IMG/VR virus record: IMGVR_UViG_3300037465_000562
Span: 1 to 37,376 of that record
Direction: 5' to 3' (one strand)
Source of the DNA: a virus
Lineage: Duplodnaviria; Caudoviricetes
DNA: 37,376 nt
Made by a program: the position numbers and the translations under genes. The notes under the pieces are model-generated. The model saw only the letters and a program-made list of their open reading frames with translations. It ran no database searches and had not been told where the DNA came from. Shown here piece by piece: positions 49 through 36,881 of the stretch (the stretch's first letter is position 1; every line of letters begins with the position of its first letter).

Positions 49-126
<78 letters not shown>

Positions 127-6200: not shown

Positions 6201-6425
6201 ATGGCAAGACCACGTGGACGCACCAAGACAGCCCGCCTCACCGTGAATCTAGAACCACGGGAGTATGAGACGTTGTGCGCCTTGGCACGCGAGCAGGATG
6301 TACCTCTTTCCTGGCTGATCCGCCGCGCGGTCAGCCACTTTCTCGCGAATCGATCTGGCGACAACTCGCTGCACGCGACCCAACCGAAGCGCAGCCGGTC
6401 TCCGTTGTCGGGGGCGCCGCGATGA
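6201..6425 (+). CDS. CopG/ribbon-helix-helix regulator heading the R-M operon
   Basis: RLTVNL...YETLCALAREQDVPLSWLIRRAV; ATGA overlap with next gene. Confidence 0.8.
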   Translation: MARPRGRTKTARLTVNLEPREYETLCALAREQDVPLSWLIRRAVSHFLANRSGDNSLHATQPKRSRSPLSGAPR

Positions 6426-7798
6426 GCCGAAGCACGTCCGATCTACCTTTCGGCAGCGAGTTTTCGCCGCAGCAAATCGACCTTCGTCGGGTGCTTGAGC
6501 TGGCTCACCAGTGCGGCAAGGACTGGAAGGCTTTCGAAGCGGCCGTGCGGAAGGAATATTTCGAGAAGAACAAAACCAGCGGGTACAACAAGAACAAGCT
6601 CGCCAACAACACAAAACTATCGCTGCGCGCCTATGGTCTGATTGAGGAATCCGATGCGCAGCTGACGGAAGTTGGGCGCGCGCTCTACGACGTGAGAACC
6701 GATCCGACGGCGCTGCACGAAGCCTTCGGCCGGCACATCCTCATGCACTGCCAGGGCATGAACTTCGTGCAATGCATTCTCGACATGACCGCCGCTGGCG
6801 AGGAAATCGACCTGACCAAGCTGCGCCGCTGGCTTGAGGATCGCGGCTTAATTGTGCCGCGCGGCTCCAAAGCGATGAGTACAATGCGGCTGTGGCTGGA
6901 AAAGGCGGGTGTGTTCGTTTCCGGCTACCGGGTCGATCAGGTGCGTCTCAATGCGATTCTCGGCCTCGGTGTCGATGAGTTTGAAGCCCTTGCCGTCTTC
7001 AGTCCCGAGCAAAAGGCGTTCCTCAAGACGCTTGCCAACATGGGCGGTGGGGGTCCACATGCCTCCAACGATGTCGAGAAGCTCGCCGCCGCCACCTACG
7101 GCGTGGCATTCAACGAGAAAAACCTTCCCAAGCAGGTTCTCTATCCGCTGGAGAAGGCGGGCTACATCATGCTCAAGCGCGGCACCAAGGCGGCGGGCCG
7201 CGGCGCGAAGCCGTTCCTAGTCACGACAACCGCGAAATTCACCGCAGACCTCATCGCGCCGCTTCTGGAGCAGCTGGAACGGCAGACCCAAGCCGATCTG
7301 CGGCCGTTGCTGCGCAAACCCCTCAAGGAAATCCGCGAGGAACTGGGTTCAGAGGACCGCCACATCCGCGGCCTTGCGCTTGAGGCGCTCGCCTTCAAGC
7401 TAATGCGGCTGATTGATCTCACCTATGTCGCAACCCGCCTGCGCGGTACTGCCACCGGCGGCGCGGAAGTAGACGTGATTTTCGAGGGCGCGCGCCTTGT
7501 CTTCTCGCGCTGGCAGGTTCAGTGCAAGAACACGGCGCGGGTGTCGCTCGACGACGTAGCCAAGGAGGTCGGGCTCACGCATTTCCTCAAGAGCAATGTG
7601 ATCGTCATGGTCTCGACCGGTGAGATCGGCGGCGAGGCACGCCGCTACGCCAACAAGATCATGACGGACTCAAACCTGTGCGTGGTGATGATAGATCGCG
7701 GCGACCTCTCTCTGATTGAAGCGCGCCCTGCGGCGATTGTCGACGTATTTGGCCGCGAAGCGCGGCACGCGATGGACCTGAAAAAGTTAGAGATATGA
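6422..7798 (+). CDS. Restriction endonuclease with C-terminal Mrr-like PD-(D/E)xK domain
   Basis: ALEAL...EVDVIF...WQVQCKN catalytic pattern; N-terminal winged-helix-like segments; ATG 6422 coupled to RHH stop. Confidence 0.8.
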   Translation: MSRSTSDLPFGSEFSPQQIDLRRVLELAHQCGKDWKAFEAAVRKEYFEKNKTSGYNKNKLANNTKLSLRAYGLIEESDAQLTEVGRALYDVRTDPTALHEAFGRHILMHCQGMNFVQCILDMTAAGEEIDLTKLRRWLEDRGLIVPRGSKAMSTMRLWLEKAGVFVSGYRVDQVRLNAILGLGVDEFEALAVFSPEQKAFLKTLANMGGGGPHASNDVEKLAAATYGVAFNEKNLPKQVLYPLEKAGYIMLKRGTKAAGRGAKPFLVTTTAKFTADLIAPLLEQLERQTQADLRPLLRKPLKEIREELGSEDRHIRGLALEALAFKLMRLIDLTYVATRLRGTATGGAEVDVIFEGARLVFSRWQVQCKNTARVSLDDVAKEVGLTHFLKSNVIVMVSTGEIGGEARRYANKIMTDSNLCVVMIDRGDLSLIEARPAAIVDVFGREARHAMDLKKLEI

Positions 7799-8958
7799 AG
7801 GGGGGCGGCATGACGGAAAGAACAAGGCGCAGGCGAACCAACGGACACGGGCGTCCGGCTTTCTATGAAACGGAACTCGGGCGCATCGTCTGCGGCGATA
7901 GCCTGGACGTTCTGGCCGGCTACGGCGACCGCTCGGTGGACCTCATCATGACCAGCCCGCCTTTCGGACTCGTCCGCAAGAAGGACTACGGCAATGTGGA
8001 AGCGAACGAATATGTCGAATGGTTCAAGCCGTTCGCCAAAGCCTTTAAGCGCGTCCTGAAAGACTCCGGCAGCCTTGTTATCGACATCGGCGGCGCGTGG
8101 AACAAGGGTTATCCGACGCGCAACCTGTACCATTTCAAACTTCTCATCATGCTGTGCGACGAGTTCGGCTTTCACCTCGCGCAGGATTTCTATTGGTGGA
8201 ATCCGTCCCGGCTGCCGACCCCGGCGGAGTGGGTGACGGTGCGCCGCGTGCGCGTAAAGGATGCGATAAACACCGTTTGGTGGCTCTCCAAGACGCCATG
8301 GCCGAAAGCCAGCAACCGGCGCGTGCTCCAGCCCTACAGCCCGAGCATGAACGAACTTCTGGCGAAGGGGTACAGAGCCAAGAAGCGGCCGTCAGGACAT
8401 GATATCAGTGAGAAGTTCAGCATCGACAATGGTGCCGCCATCCCGCCGAACCTCATCGCGATCCCAAATACCGAGAGCAACAGCTTCTATCTGCGCTACT
8501 GTGAAGAACGCGGATTGAAGCCGCATCCCGCGCGGTATCCAGCAGAATTACCGGAATATTTCATCCGAATGCTGACCGATCCCGGCGATCTTGTCGTTGA
8601 CCCTTTTGCGGGCAGCTGCGTCACCGGCGAAGTGTGCGAGCGCATCGACCGGCGCTGGGAATGCGTTGAGCTTCTGCCCGAATACTGCGAGGCGGCCCTG
8701 GGTCGCTTTGTGCGCAGCCCAAAGGAGAACGGGAAGCCTGTCGCCGATCCCCAAGACCCATCAAATTTCTACCGCGTGCCACGGCCTGGCATTCTGTGGA
8801 ACGGCCATGACGGAGAGGCGCTTGCGAAAGATGGCGGCCAGAAGCGTCCGTCGTCGGTGGGCAACGGCAAGCACCGCCTGGGCAAAGCAAACGGCCGGGT
8901 CGGCACCGGCCATTCGCGCGCGGCAGCGGTGGCGACATCTGCAGATACGCCGGATTAG
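7795..8958 (+). CDS. Beta-class N4-cytosine DNA methyltransferase, M.PvuII-like
   Basis: TSPPF precedes DPFAGS; long blocks recalled from M.PvuII (TSPPF.L.RKK.YGN, RVKDA.NTVWW.SKT.WPK, RPSGHDI, DNG..IPPNL, HPAR.P..LPE.FIRMLT). Confidence 0.9.
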   Translation: MKGGGMTERTRRRRTNGHGRPAFYETELGRIVCGDSLDVLAGYGDRSVDLIMTSPPFGLVRKKDYGNVEANEYVEWFKPFAKAFKRVLKDSGSLVIDIGGAWNKGYPTRNLYHFKLLIMLCDEFGFHLAQDFYWWNPSRLPTPAEWVTVRRVRVKDAINTVWWLSKTPWPKASNRRVLQPYSPSMNELLAKGYRAKKRPSGHDISEKFSIDNGAAIPPNLIAIPNTESNSFYLRYCEERGLKPHPARYPAELPEYFIRMLTDPGDLVVDPFAGSCVTGEVCERIDRRWECVELLPEYCEAALGRFVRSPKENGKPVADPQDPSNFYRVPRPGILWNGHDGEALAKDGGQKRPSSVGNGKHRLGKANGRVGTGHSRAAAVATSADTPD

Positions 8959-8964
8959 TAGCCC

Positions 8965-9972
8965 ATGCCTGCCGTCAGTCCCTCCGCACTTGTCGGCGCC
9001 ATCATGGACGGGTTTCAGCGCTCGGGCGCCGCCGCGTTCTTCCTTTCCGAAAAGCTTCAGACGCATCCGCGCCGGTTCGCCGTGGAGTATCTTGGCAATT
9101 CCTTCTCCGTCTGGATGTATATCTGGACGCTTACGCCTGGAGGCCGGGACACGCTGCCGGATGAATTCCGGATTCAGATGACATCTGTTGAATCGCCTTT
9201 GGCGTCGAACCCGGCGGGGTACACGGTCCTGATGGGCTACCATCCCGATCTGCACCTGTTCGCCGGCTTCGATCTTGCCAAGCATCGAATTTTTACGCCG
9301 GGGTCGTCGTCCGTACAGATCAATATCAACGCGTTGCACCAGGCCCTGCAAACGGGCTTGTCCTTCCACACCAAGACCAATGATGAAATCGCCGTCGGGG
9401 TGAGGCCTGATCAGCTTGTCAACTACGTCATATCGGCAGCGCTGCTGCACAAATACGGACCCGAAGCCGAGGTCAAGGCGCTTCTAACAAAGGCGACCGA
9501 TCCCGCGCAGCAGATCGATTCATCAATCGACCACTTAAGCGCCGAACGGCAAAGGATCGTCACCGAAGTCAGCCGCTACAGCCGCAACGCCAATTTCCGC
9601 AAGGCCGTTCTCAATGCCTATGACAACAGGTGCGCTGTTACCCGCGCGCAGATGAGGCTGGTGGAAGCCGCGCACATTCTACCCGTGCCGGCAGAAGGCA
9701 GCAGCGATCACGTCAGCAACGGCATCGCGCTCGCCCCAACTCTGCACCGCGCCTACGACAACTGCCTCATCTATCTCGACACCCAGCTCGTAATGCGCTT
9801 GAACCCAGAACGGGCCGAACAGTTGGCAGCTGAAAGCCTCGATGCTGGGCTGGACACCCTATCCACGCTTCTCGATAAGCCTATTCACCTGCCGCACGAT
9901 GCTGGCCAGCGCCCTAAACCCGAGTTCATCGCCCGAGCCAATGTGTACCGCAGAATACCGGGGTACATTTGA
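8965..9972 (+). CDS. HNH endonuclease with an uncharacterised N-terminal domain
   Basis: FRKAVLNAYDNRCAVT...EAAHILP...SNGIALAPTLHRAYD (HNH_2-type). Confidence 0.85.
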   Translation: MPAVSPSALVGAIMDGFQRSGAAAFFLSEKLQTHPRRFAVEYLGNSFSVWMYIWTLTPGGRDTLPDEFRIQMTSVESPLASNPAGYTVLMGYHPDLHLFAGFDLAKHRIFTPGSSSVQININALHQALQTGLSFHTKTNDEIAVGVRPDQLVNYVISAALLHKYGPEAEVKALLTKATDPAQQIDSSIDHLSAERQRIVTEVSRYSRNANFRKAVLNAYDNRCAVTRAQMRLVEAAHILPVPAEGSSDHVSNGIALAPTLHRAYDNCLIYLDTQLVMRLNPERAEQLAAESLDAGLDTLSTLLDKPIHLPHDAGQRPKPEFIARANVYRRIPGYI

Positions 9973-13978: not shown

Positions 13979-14840
13979 GCCCGCCTCCCTCGCGCCGCGC
14001 AGCTCGGCTGGCGAGCTCGCGACGGGCGATACTGGCGACGGTCGCCACCACTTCGTCCTCCGGCAGCGGTGGCCGGCAACGCGTGGCGTTGAAGGCGAGC
14101 ATCAGATCGAGGCAGACATGCGGATCGATGCGCCGGCCGAGCAGGAGGCCGGAGAGGCGGGCGATGGTGACGTTGCGCTCGCCATTCATGGCGCCGTCGC
14201 GCGCCAGGGTTCGCCACTGGGCGGCTTTGCGGGCCTTGTCCGCCGTCCTGGTCGCGGTGATGCGTTCGAGCAACCACGTGGGCGCGTCGGCAAGCGGCAC
14301 GTCCTCGGGATGGTGATCGACGGAGATGGCGTAGGGGCGTCCGCAGATATGCAGGGAGGGCGGGGCGACGATGTAACCGCCGTCGCCGCGCACGTCGATG
14401 CCCGGTCCGAGGGCGCCGGCGCTGTTGGCCACGCTGCGTCCTGGATGCCGAAACAGCACGTGCTCGCCACCACCGCCGGTCAGGAAGCGCCAGGTGGCGG
14501 GCAGGTGCCCGTGCTCGCGTTCGAGGTCGGCCAGAGTCTCGTCGCCACCATGGCGCGGATCGATGTCGAGCACTATGATGCCGCTCGGCGCGCCGGTGGC
14601 GACCGCGATGTTGAAGCGGGTCTTGGTGAACCAACCTTCGACCGATGCCGGGTCCTTGCTCGCGTCTTTCAGCCCGTTCCGCACCAGCCGCCCGAAGGGA
14701 TGCTTGGCGGGCTGCCGGCAATCCTTACGGCCGCAGGAGCATTCGAGCCTGCCCTCGCGCTGGAACGGGAAGTGCAGCGGCAGCACGGCGAAACCGAGCC
14801 CGAGATAGAGCCGCGCATGGTCGAGCAGGCCGGCGAGCAT
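13971..14840 (-). CDS. Bifunctional primase-polymerase (Prim-Pol + PriCT-1)
   Basis: GFAVLPL, KHP, NIAVATG, VLDID, TGGGGEH, IDVRGDGGYIVAPPS, GERN...N..RCRPPL; start set at ATG 14840. Confidence 0.9.
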   Translation of the reverse strand: MLAGLLDHARLYLGLGFAVLPLHFPFQREGRLECSCGRKDCRQPAKHPFGRLVRNGLKDASKDPASVEGWFTKTRFNIAVATGAPSGIIVLDIDPRHGGDETLADLEREHGHLPATWRFLTGGGGEHVLFRHPGRSVANSAGALGPGIDVRGDGGYIVAPPSLHICGRPYAISVDHHPEDVPLADAPTWLLERITATRTADKARKAAQWRTLARDGAMNGERNVTIARLSGLLLGRRIDPHVCLDLMLAFNATRCRPPLPEDEVVATVASIARRELASRAARREGGGHG

Positions 14841-17226: not shown

Positions 17227-17287
17227 CGACGCGTCGATCTAGCCTAACGAATTGAAGTATTTGGGAAAATCGCGCCCGCGGACGACC

Positions 17288-17332
17288 CTCATAACCTGAA
17301 GGTCGTAGGTTCAAATCCTACCCCCGCAACCA
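17288..17332 (+). repeat. att junction between elements 1 and 2 (tRNA-fMet 3' half)
   Basis: 45-bp copy of 81-125 with 2 compensatory T-stem substitutions; begins at the anticodon loop. Confidence 0.97.
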
Positions 17333-22897: not shown

Positions 22898-25621
22898 TCA
22901 GCGGCTACCGTTGTCGTCATCGACCGGTTCGCCATTTAACTCTGGCAATTCCTCCGTACCGCGTCCATCAATTATATCGCTGAAGCGAAGCAGCTCATCA
23001 TGAAGCAAAGCGGCTGCACGCCTCTGATTCAGCCGCGCCCCTTGAATGCCCGCAATCAGTCGCTTTTGTTCCTCCCGATCCGGCGGAAAGCAGATTTCGA
23101 GGGCTTCAAAGTCTTCTCGCTGCGTGCGCCGGCGATTGCTGTGCCCGGTCGTGATTGCTCGAAATGCTCGCTGATAGTACCTGCTCCGAAGCAGGCACGA
23201 CACGAACTCCGGGTCGAGACGGTTATCGACAACTTCGTAGATCGGAAATTCCTTTGTTACGAGCGCCCCATCAAATTCCGACGGCACTACCGCGATGCAC
23301 CCCTTCCAAAGGTCTATCGAAGAAAAAACCACATCCTGCGCTTTGGCTGCGAACCATTGAGACGGACTATCCTCGAAATACATGCCGAGCCATTCCGGTG
23401 GGTTCCTACCTTTTCCGGCTTCGCGAGGTCGTATCTCGCCGTTCTGCCCGATTGTCATCACGGCGACCGGCTGGTCCGGTGTAGCTGCCGGATCGATCTG
23501 ATCCTCGCGCCTGCGCATGACTTCACTTAACGGCAAACGAACCCAGCCATCCGGGGTAATCGTCCGCTCCTCTCGTTTGAACAGGAAATATTTCGGGTCC
23601 AGTCGGTCACTCGCGTGCGCGTTCCACAACTCATGGAACGGCACCGCCATGCAATCCGGCTGTGTCGAGCCGGAATATGCCTTGGGCTCGGCGTTGAACC
23701 GGCGGTATTCACCAAGAATAGTGTTCGCTTGATCGTCTGATAGCCGGCCGCCGGCTTCGCCACGATAGAGATCGTTTCGGTTGGAGGGCGCGCCGGTGGG
23801 GGCGTATCCGACATGGTTTGCCTCCGCGAGAAACGTGTGGTGATCCATGACCCTCCATGCTGCGGCGATAGCGTCCGATTCCTCTTGCCCTTCGTTTTGC
23901 GCTGCTTCGAATGCGCTCGCAAAACGTCGTGCCTCGGCATCTGTGAATTTTCGGAAGAAGAGGATCGAGGTCTTGTTTTGGGCGCCCGATTTGCGGAACG
24001 CATAGTCCGGCAACGAGACGATCGCCTCAATGAACCCGTTCTCAGCCAAGTACCTGCGGACGCGCGGACAATTGGAAATTTCTCCCTGGTTATTGAAAAG
24101 CCCGTCTGGTAGCACGAGGCCCAAGCGGCCGCCACCATCGAGGAACTTGATCGATCGCTCAAGGATGACGTGCTCCGAATCGACAGCATCACGACCCTTG
24201 GCAACATCGAAACTGGCCAACGTATTCGACCCAAGATGGTCTTCATCGCCTTCGGGAACTTCATCACCAAATGGTGGATTTCCGACCACGCGGTGAAAAC
24301 GCCCCCGTGGCTCCGCTAAGCGTGGCTTGGTGAATGTACTATCGAGGCACGAACGATCGCCCTCGATGTTTGTGTGACCGTCATGATGAAGCAAGAGGTT
24401 TATCTTGCAAATCCGCGCCAGAATTTCGTGAATTTCAATTCCGTAGACCTTAGTCAGAGCAAAGTCGGTCTTAATCCGATCAATGTGGTCCTGGCGCTGT
24501 CCTCGGAAGTCTCGATCCACGGCGTGCCATACTTGCAGAAGCACTTCCAGCAGGAATCCCCCACTACCTGCGGTCGGATCGAGCACGAAATGGTTGTGGT
24601 TGATGTCGAGCATCGCGACCGTGAACCGGGCGAGTTGCCGCATGGTGAAGTATTGGCCGAGCTCGCCGCGAAATACGGACCCAAAGAAGCTTTCAAATGC
24701 GACGCCGATGTGATCGACGTCGGTGCCCGTGAAGCTGATTGACTGAAGCGCCGAAACAACCTCAAAGATCTTCCGATCCGGCAGATTTATGCGGATGCCA
24801 TCGCGGAAGATGGTTGGGTCTTCCTCGCATGCATCGGCAAATAGCTGATGGATTCGGTTTGAGACAGACGCAGTAGTTTCGTTCGAGCCAACTTGAAACC
24901 TGCGAGGCTGGCCGGTGGGCGTCGTGCGCTCGTCGATAACCTTCGCGAAGAGAAGCTTGCTCCATTCATCGAATGCCGTCAGGGGATCGCGCTTGCCGCC
25001 CGACCAAATGATCGAGTGTGCCCGCCGAATGCGACCCTCGATGAAGCTTGGTTTGGCCGGAGCGATATCGCCGTCCTGCCCCGCGATGTGCGGGAACTCC
25101 GGAACATCGCCGTATTGTGCCGGGATTGCGTCTCGGCCGCCCCGGAGGTTCTCAACTCGCTCGCCAGGCGGATAATTCGCAACGTCATAGAACCGGGACT
25201 CGACGTGCTCGTCATAGAGGACAAGGGGAGCGCGCAGAGAATTTGCGTTTCCAAAGGCCTGCTCGATCCATTGCTTGCGGGCCGCAGCGGTTTGACCGAT
25301 AGATTTGTTTTCGACGACCAAATAAGGATCGCGGCACCTGTCATCCCGATAAACGACGATGTCGGCAAAATCGCTGGGCGTACGACGCGGTACTTGGACC
25401 TCGGTCCGTATGCGGTTGATGGGATATCCGCGCGCGACAATAAGAAATGCAACTGTTCTCGCGCGCACCCACTCTTCCGGGTCAGCCCAGTTGTAGGTTT
25501 TCTTTGTACCGAGATTATAGGTGATCCGGTCACCCTTGATTTCTATCAACCCGCGCTTGATGGCCTCGGCAACATGCGAGTCATTGAGAGCGTCGGTCTG
25601 GGTGTCGCTTCTTGGTGGCAT
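22898..25621 (-). CDS. Single-chain restriction-modification enzyme (HsdR_N-like nuclease + N6-adenine MTase + TRD), Type IIG-like
   Basis: PEEWVR...ADIVVY...VVENK nuclease; GQYFT, VLDPTAGSGGFL, VGNPPF gamma-class MTase; C-terminal S-subunit-like region; lower GC. Confidence 0.88.
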   Translation of the reverse strand: MPPRSDTQTDALNDSHVAEAIKRGLIEIKGDRITYNLGTKKTYNWADPEEWVRARTVAFLIVARGYPINRIRTEVQVPRRTPSDFADIVVYRDDRCRDPYLVVENKSIGQTAAARKQWIEQAFGNANSLRAPLVLYDEHVESRFYDVANYPPGERVENLRGGRDAIPAQYGDVPEFPHIAGQDGDIAPAKPSFIEGRIRRAHSIIWSGGKRDPLTAFDEWSKLLFAKVIDERTTPTGQPRRFQVGSNETTASVSNRIHQLFADACEEDPTIFRDGIRINLPDRKIFEVVSALQSISFTGTDVDHIGVAFESFFGSVFRGELGQYFTMRQLARFTVAMLDINHNHFVLDPTAGSGGFLLEVLLQVWHAVDRDFRGQRQDHIDRIKTDFALTKVYGIEIHEILARICKINLLLHHDGHTNIEGDRSCLDSTFTKPRLAEPRGRFHRVVGNPPFGDEVPEGDEDHLGSNTLASFDVAKGRDAVDSEHVILERSIKFLDGGGRLGLVLPDGLFNNQGEISNCPRVRRYLAENGFIEAIVSLPDYAFRKSGAQNKTSILFFRKFTDAEARRFASAFEAAQNEGQEESDAIAAAWRVMDHHTFLAEANHVGYAPTGAPSNRNDLYRGEAGGRLSDDQANTILGEYRRFNAEPKAYSGSTQPDCMAVPFHELWNAHASDRLDPKYFLFKREERTITPDGWVRLPLSEVMRRREDQIDPAATPDQPVAVMTIGQNGEIRPREAGKGRNPPEWLGMYFEDSPSQWFAAKAQDVVFSSIDLWKGCIAVVPSEFDGALVTKEFPIYEVVDNRLDPEFVSCLLRSRYYQRAFRAITTGHSNRRRTQREDFEALEICFPPDREEQKRLIAGIQGARLNQRRAAALLHDELLRFSDIIDGRGTEELPELNGEPVDDDNGSR

Positions 25622-25989
25622 TACTCATTTCCAATTTCGTGCGCCGAGCTGACATGCCTCCTCGGCTCCATGCGATCATGCAGCACGCGCACGATCTCGA
25701 CGAGGCCCGGCCGCACCGCGCGATAGAAGATCACATGCACCGGGTTCCCCACCGGCGCCTCGCGACTCTCGTCGCGGCTGTGGCGGATGTGGAAACTGCG
25801 AATGCCGGGGCGCAGCTCGCTGCGGTCCGAAGTCGAGCGCCCCTGCGGGTCCTCGGCGACGCGGCGCATCGCGGCAAGCAGCAGCGCGGCGTAGCGGATA
25901 CGCGCCTCGCGCCCATGCCGTTCCTCGCTCGTGCGCAAGAGGGAATCGATATCGCGTCTTGCCGACCTAGTGAGCCGGTAGCGCGCCAT
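25621..25989 (-). CDS. parE: ParE/RelE-family toxin
   Basis: YRLTRSARRDI...G...Y...GIRSF...HVIFYR...VEIVRVLHDRM. Confidence 0.9.
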   Translation of the reverse strand: MARYRLTRSARRDIDSLLRTSEERHGREARIRYAALLLAAMRRVAEDPQGRSTSDRSELRPGIRSFHIRHSRDESREAPVGNPVHVIFYRAVRPGLVEIVRVLHDRMEPRRHVSSAHEIGNE

Positions 25990-25995
25990 GGAGGA

Positions 25996-26262
25996 TCAGC
26001 GCGCTTCGACAAGGCGATCGAGCCAGGCTTCAAGGTCGGCGTCATCGACCTCCTCGTAGTCGCCGCGTTCGAGGTCGGCGAGCCCGGCATCGATGCTGCG
26101 GCGCAGGCGTTCGAGCTTGAGCGCGTCGATCGCGCGCCGCTGTTGCAGCGCGCGGATCGCGTCGCGCAGCGCCTCGCTGGCGTTCGCGTATTCGCCCTTC
26201 TTGAGCATGTCGTCGATGAAGGCGTCCTGCTCGGGCGTGAGGTTGATATTGCGGGTCGGCAT
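25996..26262 (-). CDS. parD: ParD-family RHH antitoxin
   Basis: MPTRNINLTPEQDAFIDDMLKKGEYANASEALRDAIRAL; true start 26262 inside longer track ORFs. Confidence 0.9.
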   Translation of the reverse strand: MPTRNINLTPEQDAFIDDMLKKGEYANASEALRDAIRALQQRRAIDALKLERLRRSIDAGLADLERGDYEEVDDADLEAWLDRLVEAR

Positions 26263-26300
26263 CGGTCCAATCTCTCTGATTCCCCTGAAAGATAGCGATT

Positions 26301-26327: not shown

Positions 26328-28163
26328 TCACCCCATCCACCGCGACCGGATCACGCGCGGCGGCTCGGCTGGCCGGCCGGGCGCCGGCGCGCCCTTCGTG
26401 GGCGCCGCGCCCATGGCGTCGGCTTCCGCGTTGAGCCGCAACCCCATGCTGATGAGGCCGTGCAGCGCGGCCATGGCATAGACGGTGGTATCGAGCGCCT
26501 CGTTTCGCTCGCCTTCGCGGCGCGGTTGCCAGAGCCGGATCGGTCGGCCGCGCTCGAAACGCGTGACGACGCGCTCGGCGGTGAGCTGGCGGAAAAACTC
26601 GGCATCGCGTTCCATCGGGAAATGCAGCGCGCCGGGTCCGGGTTCGGTGAGGCGAAGCCGCGCGAACAGCGCGTCCTTGGCGGCATCGACGCCGATGACG
26701 AACAGCGGCGCCTTGCCCTTGGTGCGTGAGGGCCGCCGCGGCCAGAGCGGCAGGCCCGGTCCGCCGCGGCCCTTGATCGCCCAGATGCGGCGATGAAGCC
26801 GCGTGCGGCAATATTCGTAAGCGGCCTTGGTGTGCTGCCCGCCGGTATCGACCGCGACCGCGCGGATGACAAGATCGGCGACGGCGCGCGCGTGCGGATA
26901 GGTGGCGGCGAGCGCCGTATCGAGATCGGTCCACACGCGCGGGCCGGACAGATCGCCGAAGATCACGCGATAGTCGATCGACCAGGCTTCCTCGTCGCGG
27001 CCCCAGCCGATCACGTGCAGTTCGAGCCGATCGCCTTGCACGTCCACGCCGGCGGTGAGCACCGCGACGCGCTCGGGCAGCAATCCTCCCCAATCCTCGC
27101 GGCGCGCCATCAAGGGCTCGGCGTCGATCACCTCGCCGGCCTGGTCCTCCCAGGTTTCGGCGAGCTTGGTGTTGGTCCAGACCTGAAGCCGCGCCGGGTC
27201 GCAATGAACCTGGCCGTGCTCGATGGCGATTTCGGCCCAGGTCTCGAACGGCGAATAGAGGCTCGACAGATGGAAGCCGGCGGTCTTGCCGTCGCCGGTG
27301 GCGGTCGCGCGCCAGCGGCCCGAAGCGAGCAGCGCCGGCTTCATGTGCTCCTCGTGCACCGAACCACAGTCCGGGCAGACGCGGTGCGCGCGGTCGCGCC
27401 GGCCTTCCGGCCATTGAATCTGCGCCCAGGTGATCGGCGCGTAGCTGCCGCAATCCGGGCAGCGCACCTCGAAGATGCGCTTGTCCGATTCCTCATAAGC
27501 CGCTTCGATGCGCGAGAAGCCTTTCAAGGTCGGCGTCGAGACGAGCACGATCTTGCGCCGGCCGCGGAAGGTGACCGTGCGCTGGATGGCGAGCGCGACC
27601 GGGTCGCCTTCGCCCGACACGTCGGAGGGATAGGCGTCCACCTCGTCGAGGAAGAGATAGCGCGCCGGCGTTGAGCGCAGGCCCACGCCCGAGGCGGCGC
27701 CGACCATGACGAGTTGCCCGCCGGGGAAGAGCTTGCGGAATTGGCTGTTGCCCGGCTCCTTCTTGCCGGGTTCGGCGACGCGCTCGCGCAGCGCCGGGCA
27801 CGCGGCGATCATCGGATCGACGCGCGTCGAGGTATTGCGCCGCACCGCGTCCATGGTCGGTTGCACCATGAGCATCAGCCCGGGCGCATGGTGGATGACA
27901 TAGCCGAGTCAGTTCAGGCCGGCCTCGGTGCCGCCGAGCTGCGCGCCCTTCATGAACACCACGCGCTCGGTTGGATCGCGCGCCGAAAGGCAATCCATGA
28001 TCTCGCGGAGATAGGGCGTGCGGGCGGTGCGCCAGCGGCCGGGCTCGGCGGACAGATCGGGCAGGATGCGGTGCTCGTCCGCCCATTGCGAGACGGTCAA
28101 CGGCGGCTCGGGCGCCGCGCCCTCGCGCCAAATTTCATCGACCCAGGCGGCGACCTCATCCAT
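26328..28163 (-). pseudogene. terL: GpA-family terminase large subunit with an in-frame TGA
   Basis: GGTEAGLN*LGY: TGA at 27909-27911 where element 1 has TGG (Trp); same frame on both sides. Confidence 0.92.
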
Positions 28164-28680
28164 CGCGCAGCTCCGGTAATGGGATGCGCGCAAGATCGAC
28201 AAGATGCTCGCGCATGAGCCGGTCGAGGGCGGCGAAGGTACGCGCCGGATCGGCGCCGAGCTCGGCGGCAAGCAGCGGCGTCACGCGCGCGACCCACGCC
28301 ATGTGGGCATCGCGCTCGGCCTTGGCGCGGGCGAACACCGCGACCTTCACGGCGGATCGGTTCACGAGATCGCCGCGCTCGCGTTCGAGGGCGAGCTTAG
28401 CGCGCTGGACCTTGACGATTTCGTGCAGGCGGCGCGCTTCCGCGAGCGAGGGCGTGGCGCCGGCGACACCGCCCTTGCCGCGCCGGTCGGGATCGAGGTT
28501 GTCCTCCATCCAGCGCAGGCCGGCCTCGACTTCGATCCGGCCGTCAGGCAAGACCGGAAGCCCTTGCGCGATCAGTTGCGAGATGCGCCCGCGCGTGAGC
28601 CCGACACGTTCGGCGAACGCCGCCTTGGTGACGGCGCCTGTTTGTGAGTCAACCCTGGCGCCTGCCGCTAGTTTAGGCAT
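28156..28680 (-). CDS. terS: Putative terminase small subunit
   Basis: Homolog of 11805-12314 (TKAAFAERVGLTRGRISQLIAQGLP); start MPKL as in element 1. Confidence 0.75.
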   Translation of the reverse strand: MPKLAAGARVDSQTGAVTKAAFAERVGLTRGRISQLIAQGLPVLPDGRIEVEAGLRWMEDNLDPDRRGKGGVAGATPSLAEARRLHEIVKVQRAKLALERERGDLVNRSAVKVAVFARAKAERDAHMAWVARVTPLLAAELGADPARTFAALDRLMREHLVDLARIPLPELRDG

Positions 28681-34561: not shown

Positions 34562-34608
34562 GGCTCATAACCTGAAGGTCGTAGGTTCAAATCCTACCCC
34601 CGCAACCA
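34562..34608 (+). repeat. Distal att site (tRNA-fMet 3' half)
   Basis: 47-bp copy of 79-125 with the same 2 substitutions as 17288-17332. Confidence 0.97.
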
Positions 34609-34793
34609 CCTTTGCCGAACGGTAGCGTCCAGCATCTTTCGCACTTTCGCTCACGCGACGACGGCTCCGTAGGCTTCGGTATTGGCCGCGTGCAGCGGGT
34701 CCATGTTCATGTACTTGCGGGTTGACCACTGGGTCGCCGCGATGTGTCGGAGGCGCGCCGCGGCGAGGTTCAGGCAGCGCTGGCCGTCCGGGA

Positions 34794-34835
34794 GTGAGGC
34801 CCGCCCCGCCACCGGTTCAAGGGGCCGGGCCGAAC
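34794..34835 (+). repeat. 41-42 bp hairpin insertion element, copy 1
   Basis: GTGAG-GCCCGCCC-CGCCACCGGTTCAAG-GGGCCGGGC-CGAAC interrupting VVG[AF]PDG. Confidence 0.8.
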
Positions 34836-35377
34836 GCCGACCACGCGGGTGCGTCGTCGGATCTCGCGCATGATCCGCTCCAGCGGGTTGTTGGTCCGGA
34901 GCTTGATCCAGTGGCAGTCGGGGAAGGCGTAGAAGGTCAGGGTCTCGCCGACATGGGCCTCGACGAGCTCCGCCGCGCGCACGAGACGCTGGCGGCGGAG
35001 CTCGTCGACCACCGCCTGCGCCTTGCTCTCCGCGGTCGGGCGGCTCTCCTGGGCGTGGATCGCCTTGAGCATGTGGCTGACCTCGCGGACCTTGGTCGAT
35101 GGCACGTGGCTGAAGACGTTGCGGTAAAAATGCACGACACAGCGTTGCCAGCGGGCATCCGGCAGGTACTCGGCGGCGCTCTCGACCAAGCCCCGGCAGG
35201 CATCCGAGACGATCAGCTCGACCCCCTTCAGCCCGCGGTCGACCAGGTGGCGCAGGAAGGCCGACCAGCCCGACTTGTCCTCCTTGGCGCCCTCGCAGAT
35301 GCCGAGGATCTCCCGGTAGCCCTCCGAGGTCACGCCGATCGCCACCAAGAGCGAGACGTTCCGGACCTCGCCCGCCC

Positions 35378-35418
35378 GTTCGCCATCGGGCTCGGACCGA
35401 TGGCGCCCGATGGCTCAC
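35378..35418 (-). repeat. 41-42 bp hairpin insertion element, copy 2
   Basis: GTGAG-CCATCGGG-CGCCATCGGTCCGAG-CCCGATGG-CGAAC interrupting MKR[SW]AGEV. Confidence 0.85.
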
Positions 35419-35543
35419 CGCTTCATCACGATGCCGTCGAGAAAGACGTAAGGGTGCGCGCCCTCGATCGGCCGGTTCCGCCACGCCTCGATCTTGGCAT
35501 AGATCTTCTTGTTGAGGTTCGAGACCGTGCTCGGGCTGACCCG

Positions 35544-35585
35544 GTCGCCATTGTCGCTCGGACCAATGGCGCTCTCAATGGCGAC
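35544..35585 (-). repeat. 41-42 bp hairpin insertion element, copy 3
   Basis: GTCGCCATTG-AGAG-CGCCATTGGTCCGAG-CGA-CAATGGCGAC interrupting ALW[GT]RVSPS. Confidence 0.8.
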
Positions 35586-36052
35586 CCCACAGCGCCTCGG
35601 TGATGTCCTCGACCCGGCGCACCGACACGCCGGCGAGGTACATCTCGATCAGCGCCTCCTCGGCCGAGCTCTCCCGGCGCCGGTAGCGCTCGATGATCGC
35701 CGTCTCGAAGGTCTGACGTCGCAGCTTCGGAACCTTCAGGCTGACCTTGCCGGCCTTGGTCTCGAGGTTGCGCTCATAGCTCCCGGCCCGGGTGTCCTTG
35801 CGCGCCTCGCTGCGCTCATAGCGGCCCGCGCCGCAGAGCCGGTCCGCCTCGGCGTCGAGCATCGCGTTCAGCGCCTCTTCCACCGTCCCGCGCACCATCT
35901 CGCCCAGGTAATCCCGGATCCGCCCCTCGTCGATCTGGATCACCTGACCCATCGGCTTGCTCTCCGTCCTCTCGTGCATGCTCAGCTCCTCTCAGCTACC
36001 CTGAAAGGAGCCGCCGCGCTCGGCAAATGTGCGAAAGATCCTGTACGTTATC

Positions 36053-36881
36053 TGCGCGTTGCCCAGTCCGTGATCGCGACCAGATACAGGAAGCCACGGC
36101 GCACTGGAATGAAGGTGATGTCGGCGCACCAGACCTGGCCGGGCCGGGTGATTTCCATCTTCCCCAGCCGGTAGGGGTAGACCGGGTGCTGCGGGTGCGG
36201 CTGGCTGGTCTTCGGGCGCCGGTAGACCGCTTCCAGGCCGATCCTGCGCATCAGCCGCTGGACTCGGTGTCGTCCGACCCGGATGCCCTCCCAAGCCAGA
36301 TACTGCACGATCTGCCGGCTGCCGAAGAACCGGTAGGCGGTGAACACCCGGTCGATCTCGCGCATCAGCGCCAAGGTCTCGGGGCTCTCGCCCACGGGCG
36401 CACAGGAGATCGACGAGCGACTGATCGAGAGGAGCTGGCACTGCCGTGTCAGGCTCAGCTTCGCGTGGTTCCGCTGGATGGCGGCGCGACGGTCGGCAGG
36501 GCTCATCGTCCGAGCGCTCGCGACAAGAAATCGTTCGCGACCACCGTTCGCCCGCTCGCTCGCACCGGTGGCGCTCGCGGCCTCACCCCGATCTTCGCGT
36601 GCAGCTCGGCCTTCTCCGCCTCGTGGTCGGCCTCCCGGCTGAGCCTGTCCGCGAACACGGCGTTCAGACCGTCCATGGCCTGCCGCTTCCACTGGCTCAC
36701 TTGGTTCGGGTGCAACTGATGCTTCGCGGCGATCTCCTGGATCGTCCGGTCACTGCGCAGTGCCTCCAGCGCCACCTTGGCCTTGATTCGCCGTGAACTT
36801 CCGTCTCTTCGCCATCGCGTATCCCTTCCTCGCTTCCGGGATACCCCTTTGCCTACCGTCCGAATTTCCGGGACCACCTCA
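36053..36881 (-). mobile_element. IS3-family element, 3'-truncated by IS256; orfA frameshifted
   Basis: Left IR TGAGGTGGTCCCGGAAATTCGGAC at 36881; orfA 36815-36503 (KAKVALEAL...HPNQVSQWK); orfB from 36506 (QVWCADITFI...YLVAITDW) cut at 36053. Confidence 0.88.
36546..36586 (-). repeat. 41-42 bp hairpin insertion element, copy 4 (in frame in IS3 orfA)
   Basis: GTGAG-GCCGCGAG-CGCCACCGGTGCGAG-CGAGCGGG-CGAAC; puts VRPRAPPVRASGRT between AKIG and VVANDF. Confidence 0.8.

Follow-up and report, generated by a model that had tools for sequence, protein, structure and literature searches.

In a single contig of 37,376 bases filed as a virus record, here called the window and analysed at its full length, four short segments interrupt the transposase genes of two neighboring insertion sequences (ISs), which raises the question of what these segments are, how they enter genes, and why they lie where they do. 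Two satellite-like units, each encoding an integrase, a primase, a gpA terminase, a portal, and a capsid protein, are integrated in tandem at tRNA-Met in the window, and both ISs lie beyond the last att copy, outside the satellite array (Table 1). The satellites also carry defence-like cargo (an AAA-DUF4435 protein, an Mrr-type nuclease with a methylase and an HNH protein, an N6 methylase-HsdR fusion, and a ParE/ParD pair), and the second unit has a gpA terminase split across two frames. The IS256 transposase, which starts at 35979, is broken only by the first three segments: each of the four stretches between the inserts translates without a stop, and the gene is otherwise whole. The IS3 element has a further frame break near the start of orfA, and its orfB is truncated by the IS256. 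An Rfam search of the window gave only tRNA at the gathering score, and between 34500 and 36700 no relevant match appeared even at E values up to 10.

Table 1. Positions of features in the window, and of sister elements in other loci (given as locus:position)
Feature	Position	Strand	Remarks
Tandem satellite-like units at tRNA-Met (with 17287-17332 and 34563-34608)	49-125		
tRNA-Met 3' half copies bounding satellite units	78-125, 17287-17332, 34563-34608		
tRNA-Met 3' half copy (att site)	34563..34608	+	closes satellite array
Defence-like satellite cargo	341-2110, 6275-9972, 22898-26270		
gpA terminase of second unit, split	27909-28271 and 26328-27875 (region 26328-28271)		two frames
IS256-family element with terminal inverted repeats	34627..36046	-	Pfam PF00872, ends, segment translations, relatives
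Hairpin copy 1, 42 nt	34794..34835	+	antisense to IS256 transposase; 4 nt replaced, net +38, frameshift
Hairpin copy 2, 41 nt	35378..35418	-	sense; 5 nt replaced, net +36, in-frame TGA
Hairpin copy 3, 42 nt, GTCG/CGAC ends	35544..35585	-	5 nt replaced, net +37, frameshift
IS3-family element, 5' part	36047..36881	-	Pfam HTH_Tnp_1, HTH_21, rve
Hairpin copy 4, 41 nt, in IS3 orfA	36546..36586	-	5 nt replaced, net +36, 12 codons added in frame
Sister elements	L222:308, L224:1334, L225:727, L106:751, L138:2049, L253:3361		
Sister elements	L121:3321, L139:2256, L007:1102, L057:209, L140:2821-2870, L140:2909-2949		

A preliminary description of this locus, made from the sequence alone, had proposed four copies of a hairpin element that replace a few target bases without duplicating them, and the positions, strands, and lengths of all four are confirmed. 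Alignment to insert-free IS256 and IS3 relatives (loci L096, L098, L099, and L097; 68-75% identical) shows 4, 5, 5, and 5 bases lost, with no duplication, and bears out the predicted coding effects of every copy. The worry that they are assembly artefacts is answered by the presence of the family in hundreds of independent assemblies, including single-contig chromosomes. The 15-nt core described as conserved matches exactly only at the four copies within the window, and the full pattern with up to five mismatches adds one poor match, at 14622. The reported absence of copies from the satellite DNA also holds: the 2,256 bp of IS DNA hold all four copies and the remaining 34.6 kb hold none, a distribution that length alone would give with a probability of about 1e-5, and sites resembling the target (RNR-N4/5-G) are equally dense in the two parts (624 in 2,256 bp of IS DNA versus 9,429 in the remaining 34,626 bp). 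The predicted fold beats shuffled sequences for copies 2 (z -3.9) and 3 (z -3.1) but not for copy 1 (z -1.3); copy 4 does no better than its shuffles (z +0.9). In a distant IS256 (L113), the site equivalent to that of copy 1 holds a similar element variant, and the GTCG/CGAC ends of copy 3 recur at 13 viral loci, 11 of them convincing.

The four copies belong to a real and widespread family of gene-less hairpins, 39-44 nt long, that is neither catalogued nor described in the literature we searched. A strict pattern finds 95 loci in the viral set, 122 in 8 of the 64 parts of the GTDB set (an overall estimate of about 1000 stretches), and 120 in 7 of the 64 parts of the metagenome set (for which the overall estimate is about 1200). 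With a relaxed pattern, 91 of 301 Rhodobacterales genomes match, with up to 28 copies each, against a single match for the reversed control. Most of the named hosts belong to the Rhodobacterales, and the rest comprise other Alphaproteobacteria and a small number of metagenome-assembled genomes under other labels; plasmids of Ruegeria pomeroyi DSS-3 and Paracoccus denitrificans contain copies, and a search of GenBank phages with one 41-nt variant returned no match.

Members of the family share the layout NN-GA-G, arm, C-GCC-AYY-GGT-NCRA-G, arm, C-GA-NN, which folds into a 2-bp end helix, a tandem G.A, a stem of about 10 bp, a GCC-AYY-GGT cap, and a 4-nt bulge. Of the consensus ends first proposed, GTGAG and CGAAC, the constant part is GA-G...C-GA, which forms the tandem G.A pair; the terminal two base pairs are instead variable and covary (GT/AC, GC/GC, AT/AT, TC/GG, and CT/AG are seen). 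Across the family, arm sequence is unconserved and the fold covaries strongly. Across 45 distinct copies (hand-chosen copies with 8/8 arms plus window copy 1, among which related rows inflate the cell counts), 91% of cells are paired, versus 66% in shuffled alignments and 24-38% with slid partners, and 10 of the 15 pairs have changed on both sides; for the outer arm pairs of 216 copies, 88% are Watson-Crick versus 41% when shuffled. The cap helix is invariant and therefore uninformative on pairing by itself. Unpaired cells cluster at the inner arm, and among the 91 copies whose arms are 8/8, GA stands opposite GA in 25; in DNA, such tandem G.A pairs have particular stability. The left arm starts with CCA, like the cap, in 132 of 335 unique copies, and in 56 of these 132 the next two bases are also those of the cap, permitting an alternative hairpin with a T-loop-like 7-nt loop.

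Insertion follows a simple junction rule. An element-free relative was available for 99 of 173 site groups: 61 replace 5 nt, 37 replace 4 nt, and one replaces 0 nt, so that at 98 of the 99 sites 4-5 nt are lost with no duplication. The closest comparison comes from one genome (G077), where, apart from the insert that takes the place of CAGC, no more than 2 mismatches over about 1,020 bp separate 10 clean copies of an IS481-like element from 4 carriers. Public DNA contigs likewise supply empty alleles of locus L140, with 4 bases where a 40-nt copy sits and 5 bases where a 50-nt sister element sits. The 4-nt replacement goes with element ends starting in T/C. The replaced bases have no fixed sequence (AGCT was considered as the replaced site and rejected), and the flanks of the 173 site groups are biased, with a purine at -3 in 157, a purine at -1 in 170, and G at +1 in 145, which amounts to a weak target motif, R-N-R | N4-5 | G, of about 2.7 bits. 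Insertions are found in either orientation. Hairpin or open structure at the empty target showed no clear difference between 95 sites and 380 motif-matched controls (p 0.04 to 0.86 over four measures), pairing between the two flanks of the target was not found, and guide-like base pairing between element and target did not rise above noise in 1,440 and 858 comparisons. Together, the covariation and the junctions bear out the original reading, in which the element is tiny and non-autonomous, has a conserved structure, and inserts by replacement.

The family is concentrated in the genes of mobile DNA. Among 124 distinct sites in the GTDB sample, 107 lie in IS sequence (Pfam placed 87, tblastx against the Pfam-placed loci another 19, and a later scan with Pfam 1 more), 8 in phage genes, 1 in an oxidoreductase, and 1 in a ribonucleotide reductase, with 7 lacking an assignment; 7 sites at most could thus be intergenic, the other 117 being in ISs or in genes. 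The 122 metagenome sites divide similarly, into 100 in ISs (86 by tblastx, 14 by Pfam), 8 in phage genes, 1 in an integrase, 1 in an oxidoreductase, and 12 without assignment, and in G077 all 28 of 28 matches are in ISs, which generally make up a few percent of such genomes. With about 85% of sites in IS genes, accumulation in neutral DNA, one of two options first offered for the window copies, is a poor fit. The targets span the IS3, IS5, IS21, IS66, IS110, IS256, IS481, IS630, IS1380, IS1595, IS30, and IS91 families, and 68 of the 92 Pfam-assigned sites are in the sense and 24 in the antisense orientation. The only GTDB sites in apparently non-mobile genes are a 42-nt copy in a FAD oxidoreductase (L103:2501) and a 41-nt copy in the ribonucleotide reductase (L186:301).

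All 18 of the non-IS viral site groups hold 41-nt copies, versus 39 of 124 sites in the GTDB sample; these 18 groups comprise tail, portal, baseplate region, and small genes, five of them assigned by context only, and exclude two doubtful loci (L416 and L418). Because a 41-nt copy in exchange for 5 bases leaves the reading frame intact, removal of the element before translation is improbable: genes whose product is needed appear to have been cleared of frame-breaking copies, and this speaks against splicing or bypass. The family explains many of the frameshifted transposases in Rhodobacterales annotations. All five full copies of an IS3 in genome G295 are frameshifted by a +38 insert, at different places, with no clean copy found, and the 60 nt after the insert show 14 synonymous versus 2 non-synonymous changes in the very frame that the insert breaks. 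An IS256 in genome G005 contains six element copies and one sister element with no other indel over 660 aligned nt, again with no clean copy found. We infer that these two are mosaics and trans-mobilised copies. Some carriers are decayed, and an internally deleted IS481-like element occurs as two identical copies at different places. In two chimeric elements (L248:2657 and L227:47) the left half comes from one site and the right half from another, and the middle of the IS appears to have been lost through recombination between two copies; one IS shortened in this way occurs twice.

What the preliminary description had overlooked is that insertion recurs at the same sites in unrelated IS lineages, and that element variants are linked to the site. 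In an IS3 family, 6 of 36 members carry an element at one site and do not form one clade (p-AU 4.6e-39), and the same is true of 5 of 38 members of an IS5 family (p-AU 2.7e-7); both families were picked for trees since known carriers shared a site, and unbiased searches contributed 2 of the 6 carriers in the first and 1 of the 5 in the second. Until a few bases from the junction, the flanks of each carrier follow those of its own clade. Pairs of elements at the same site whose flanks are 55-85% alike (n = 33, including a few phage genes or single-genome pairs) differ by 4.7 edits, versus 9.7 between sites (p 1e-10), and 8 of the 33 pairs are identical versus 0.26% of 11,476 random pairs, with identity occurring even where the flanks are just 55-60% alike. 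In G077, older isoforms about 85% identical to the young IS family have the same element at the same site, and the young carriers show no flanking change of the donor type, the nearest differences lying about 20 nt to either side. Precise copying between homologous sites fits the same-site likeness and the G077 case best, and the same-site hits together with the likeness of the elements point to homing-like copying between isoforms. Identity between carriers of one site climbs toward the junction, from about 0.65-0.69 to 0.77-0.78, and 132 of 176 site groups are singletons.

The search for a mobilising enzyme compared 27 copy-rich genomes with 23 controls, of which 22 have zero copies and one (G305) is uncounted. 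Y1/RAYT transposases (PF01797, a profile that may miss divergent HUH proteins) do not track the copies, with 3 of 27 versus 2 of 23; nor do reverse transcriptases (5 of 27 versus 9 of 23), and Argonaute/Piwi is found in none of the 50 genomes. No candidate gene is flanked by a copy in any annotated locus; the 8 PF01797 loci inspected are IS200-like, and one element copy lies near such a gene, on one side only. The structure-specific mobiliser proposed earlier remains hypothetical. IS91 Y2 transposases are enriched (11 of 27 versus 2 of 23, uncorrected for IS load) but absent from 16 carriers, and we rejected IS91 as the mobiliser: it is itself a target, and its ends bear no likeness to the element. 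An end hairpin upstream of tnpA in IS200-like elements (L548 and L551) resembles the element cap, with one base different in L548; such IS200-like elements occur in just 3 of the 27 carriers.

We lean, by a narrow measure, towards reading the family as a parasite of ISs that is inserted as folded single-stranded DNA by a strand-swapping enzyme and copied between matching IS sites. Single-stranded DNA is suggested as the acting molecule because both gene orientations are used and because tandem G.A pairs replace Watson-Crick pairs in the fold. A new site would be created when one target strand undergoes two strand exchanges at a distance of 4-5 nt; a copy in one IS isoform would then be passed to the homologous site of others, for which some 20 nt of similar flank, or less, would suffice, and broken carriers would be moved in trans by intact transposases, spreading the family across species. 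A more specific form of this proposal is tentative, and we rate it well below the general one: a novel recombinase might recognise the tandem-G.A base of the hairpin and swap 4-5 target bases, choosing targets by likeness to the donor flank or by a property of transposing DNA, in which case the element would be a homing micro-parasite that spreads through IS families and kills them, serving as a natural check on transposons, and several sister families would share its enzyme. Several observations weigh against the parasite reading. Profiling found no enzyme and no copy flanks a candidate gene; no element-target pairing was found that would explain site choice at 55-60% flank identity; ISs are mosaic, and ordinary recombination could partly scatter carriers on a whole-element tree. 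The lack of a clean G295 IS3 or G005 IS256 would mean that the helper transposase was lost or missed, and the synonymous bias in G295 lies in the frame that the insert breaks. A somewhat unlikely alternative does without intrinsic targeting, invoking a rare enzyme with a weak motif and attributing the IS bias to survival, amplification with the ISs, and RecA gene conversion. The low information of the motif suits it, as do the perfect match of about 20 nt per side in the G077 transfer, which ordinary conversion could use, the rise in carrier identity toward the junction, and the existence of element-by-element recombination products. However, most site groups are singletons and yet so few GTDB sites could be intergenic; the window IS256 took three inserts without any other lesion while the satellite DNA took none; passive conversion would not maintain a covarying fold; and identical elements occur despite flanks only 55-60% alike.

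The bias could also come from the host, through an anti-transposon system in which a chromosomal enzyme marks mobile DNA, for example, free transposition intermediates, with inactivating hairpins. More than 10 unrelated IS families and temperate phages are hit while chromosomal genes almost never are, and single ISs hold up to six copies plus sister elements, both as such a system would predict; but no source locus or linked gene was found, the many different variants per genome fit self-propagating copies better than one template, intact ISs are abundant beside carriers (as the 10 clean copies in G077 show), and neither reverse transcriptase nor Argonaute tracks the copies, so that we regard a host system as improbable. 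Still less probable, and in our view quite unlikely, is a transparent element, removed as a micro-intron or skipped as a ribosome-hop signal, with transposase still made by its carriers. IS families consisting of carriers only, the synonymous bias after the insert in G295, and compensatory stem changes at a shared site would all agree with it, but the exclusive use of 41-nt copies in non-IS phage genes, the antisense position of about a quarter of assigned sites (24 of 92), and the decay of some carriers do not, and with replacements of both 4 and 5 nt by elements of 40-43 nt no single cut rule restores the frame. Finally, the two 8-9 nt arms could be guides in guide-RNA units of the TIGR or C/D-box-like kind, in which, as these are generally described, two short variable segments likewise lie between GA- and CCA-bearing boxes. 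This reading is largely refuted already and hardly credible: the arms pair with each other and have no likeness to the target, the copies are dispersed inside genes rather than arrayed, and there is no Rfam match at the gathering score.

The closest known systems are the small dispersed repeats (SDRs) of cyanobacteria, as these are generally described, and loosely the REPs, and the family lacks the defining features of REPs, MITEs, RPEs, and TIGR units. Cyanobacterial SDRs are gene-less mobile repeats of about 21-27 nt whose enzyme is unknown and for which recombination-based spread has been proposed; Elhai and colleagues reportedly described SDR1-8 in Nostoc and relatives in 2008. On that general description, the hairpin family resembles SDRs in being tiny, in showing compensatory changes in its fold, and in being embedded in other mobile or repeated DNA. 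It differs in length (39-44 nt versus about 21-27 nt), in hosts (mostly Alphaproteobacteria versus cyanobacteria), and in its tandem G.A base, its 4-5 nt replacement at 98 sites, and its near-exclusive location in transposase coding sequence. TIGR or C/D-box guide units, again as generally described, differ in their tandem arrays and spacer-target pairing, neither of which is seen in the family.

REPs and REPINs are imperfect palindromes of 20-60 nt without terminal repeats, associated with Y1 RAYT (TnpA-REP) transposases; they are mostly extragenic, have a fixed 5' tag of the GTAG type, and flank the RAYT gene (PMC3733652, PMC3116915, PMC6006769), and one Pseudomonas fluorescens group starts with GTGAG (PMC3116915, Table 1). 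The hairpin family is likewise an imperfect palindrome within this size range, but its first two bases are variable and form pairs with the final two, leaving no fixed tag outside the stem, and its copies are intragenic singlets in genomes of which 24 of 27 copy-rich ones lack Y1 genes. RPEs are alphaproteobacterial palindromes of about 150 bp that lie in frame in the coding sequences of metabolic genes (PMC10969869); the hairpins share the location inside coding sequences and the tolerance of in-frame copies, seen here in phage genes, but are a quarter of the size, mostly frame-breaking, and in mobile genes. MITEs, including MITEPye1 of Paracoccus yeei, are non-autonomous elements with stem-loops, IS-derived terminal inverted repeats, and target duplications, and are mostly intergenic (PMC11578231). 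Non-autonomy, stem-loop folding, and, for MITEPye1, the host order are shared, whereas the hairpins lose 4-5 nt without target duplication (98 of 99 sites) and have just two variable base pairs at their ends; inspection of those ends against the ends of IS256, IS3, and IS91 found no likeness.

The hairpin family also has relatives of its own. Sister families of 40-80 nt, have a base similar to that of the family (most of them begin with GTGAG and end with GAAC), form hairpins capped by CC-NNN-GG and occupy the same ISs and phage regions, and it is likely that they and the hairpin family form one superfamily. A separate insert of about 20 nt, with two mini-hairpins and a 2-base AA duplication, is found in L262-L267 near 1875, at L106:925, and in L282; it sits at the orfA/orfB frameshift site of two IS3 families that are 66% alike.

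The means by which repeats as small as SDRs and RPEs move has long been an open question, and this family makes direct testing possible, with clean and carrier alleles in one genome (10 and 4), a measured junction rule, and copies in R. pomeroyi DSS-3 and P. denitrificans. What sets it apart is its confinement to IS genes, the 4-5 nt replacement, and the homing-like spread. If the IS bias is intrinsic, the enzyme responsible would perform scarless short replacement, which would be of interest as a tool, and the family would represent an unrecognised route of transposon death.
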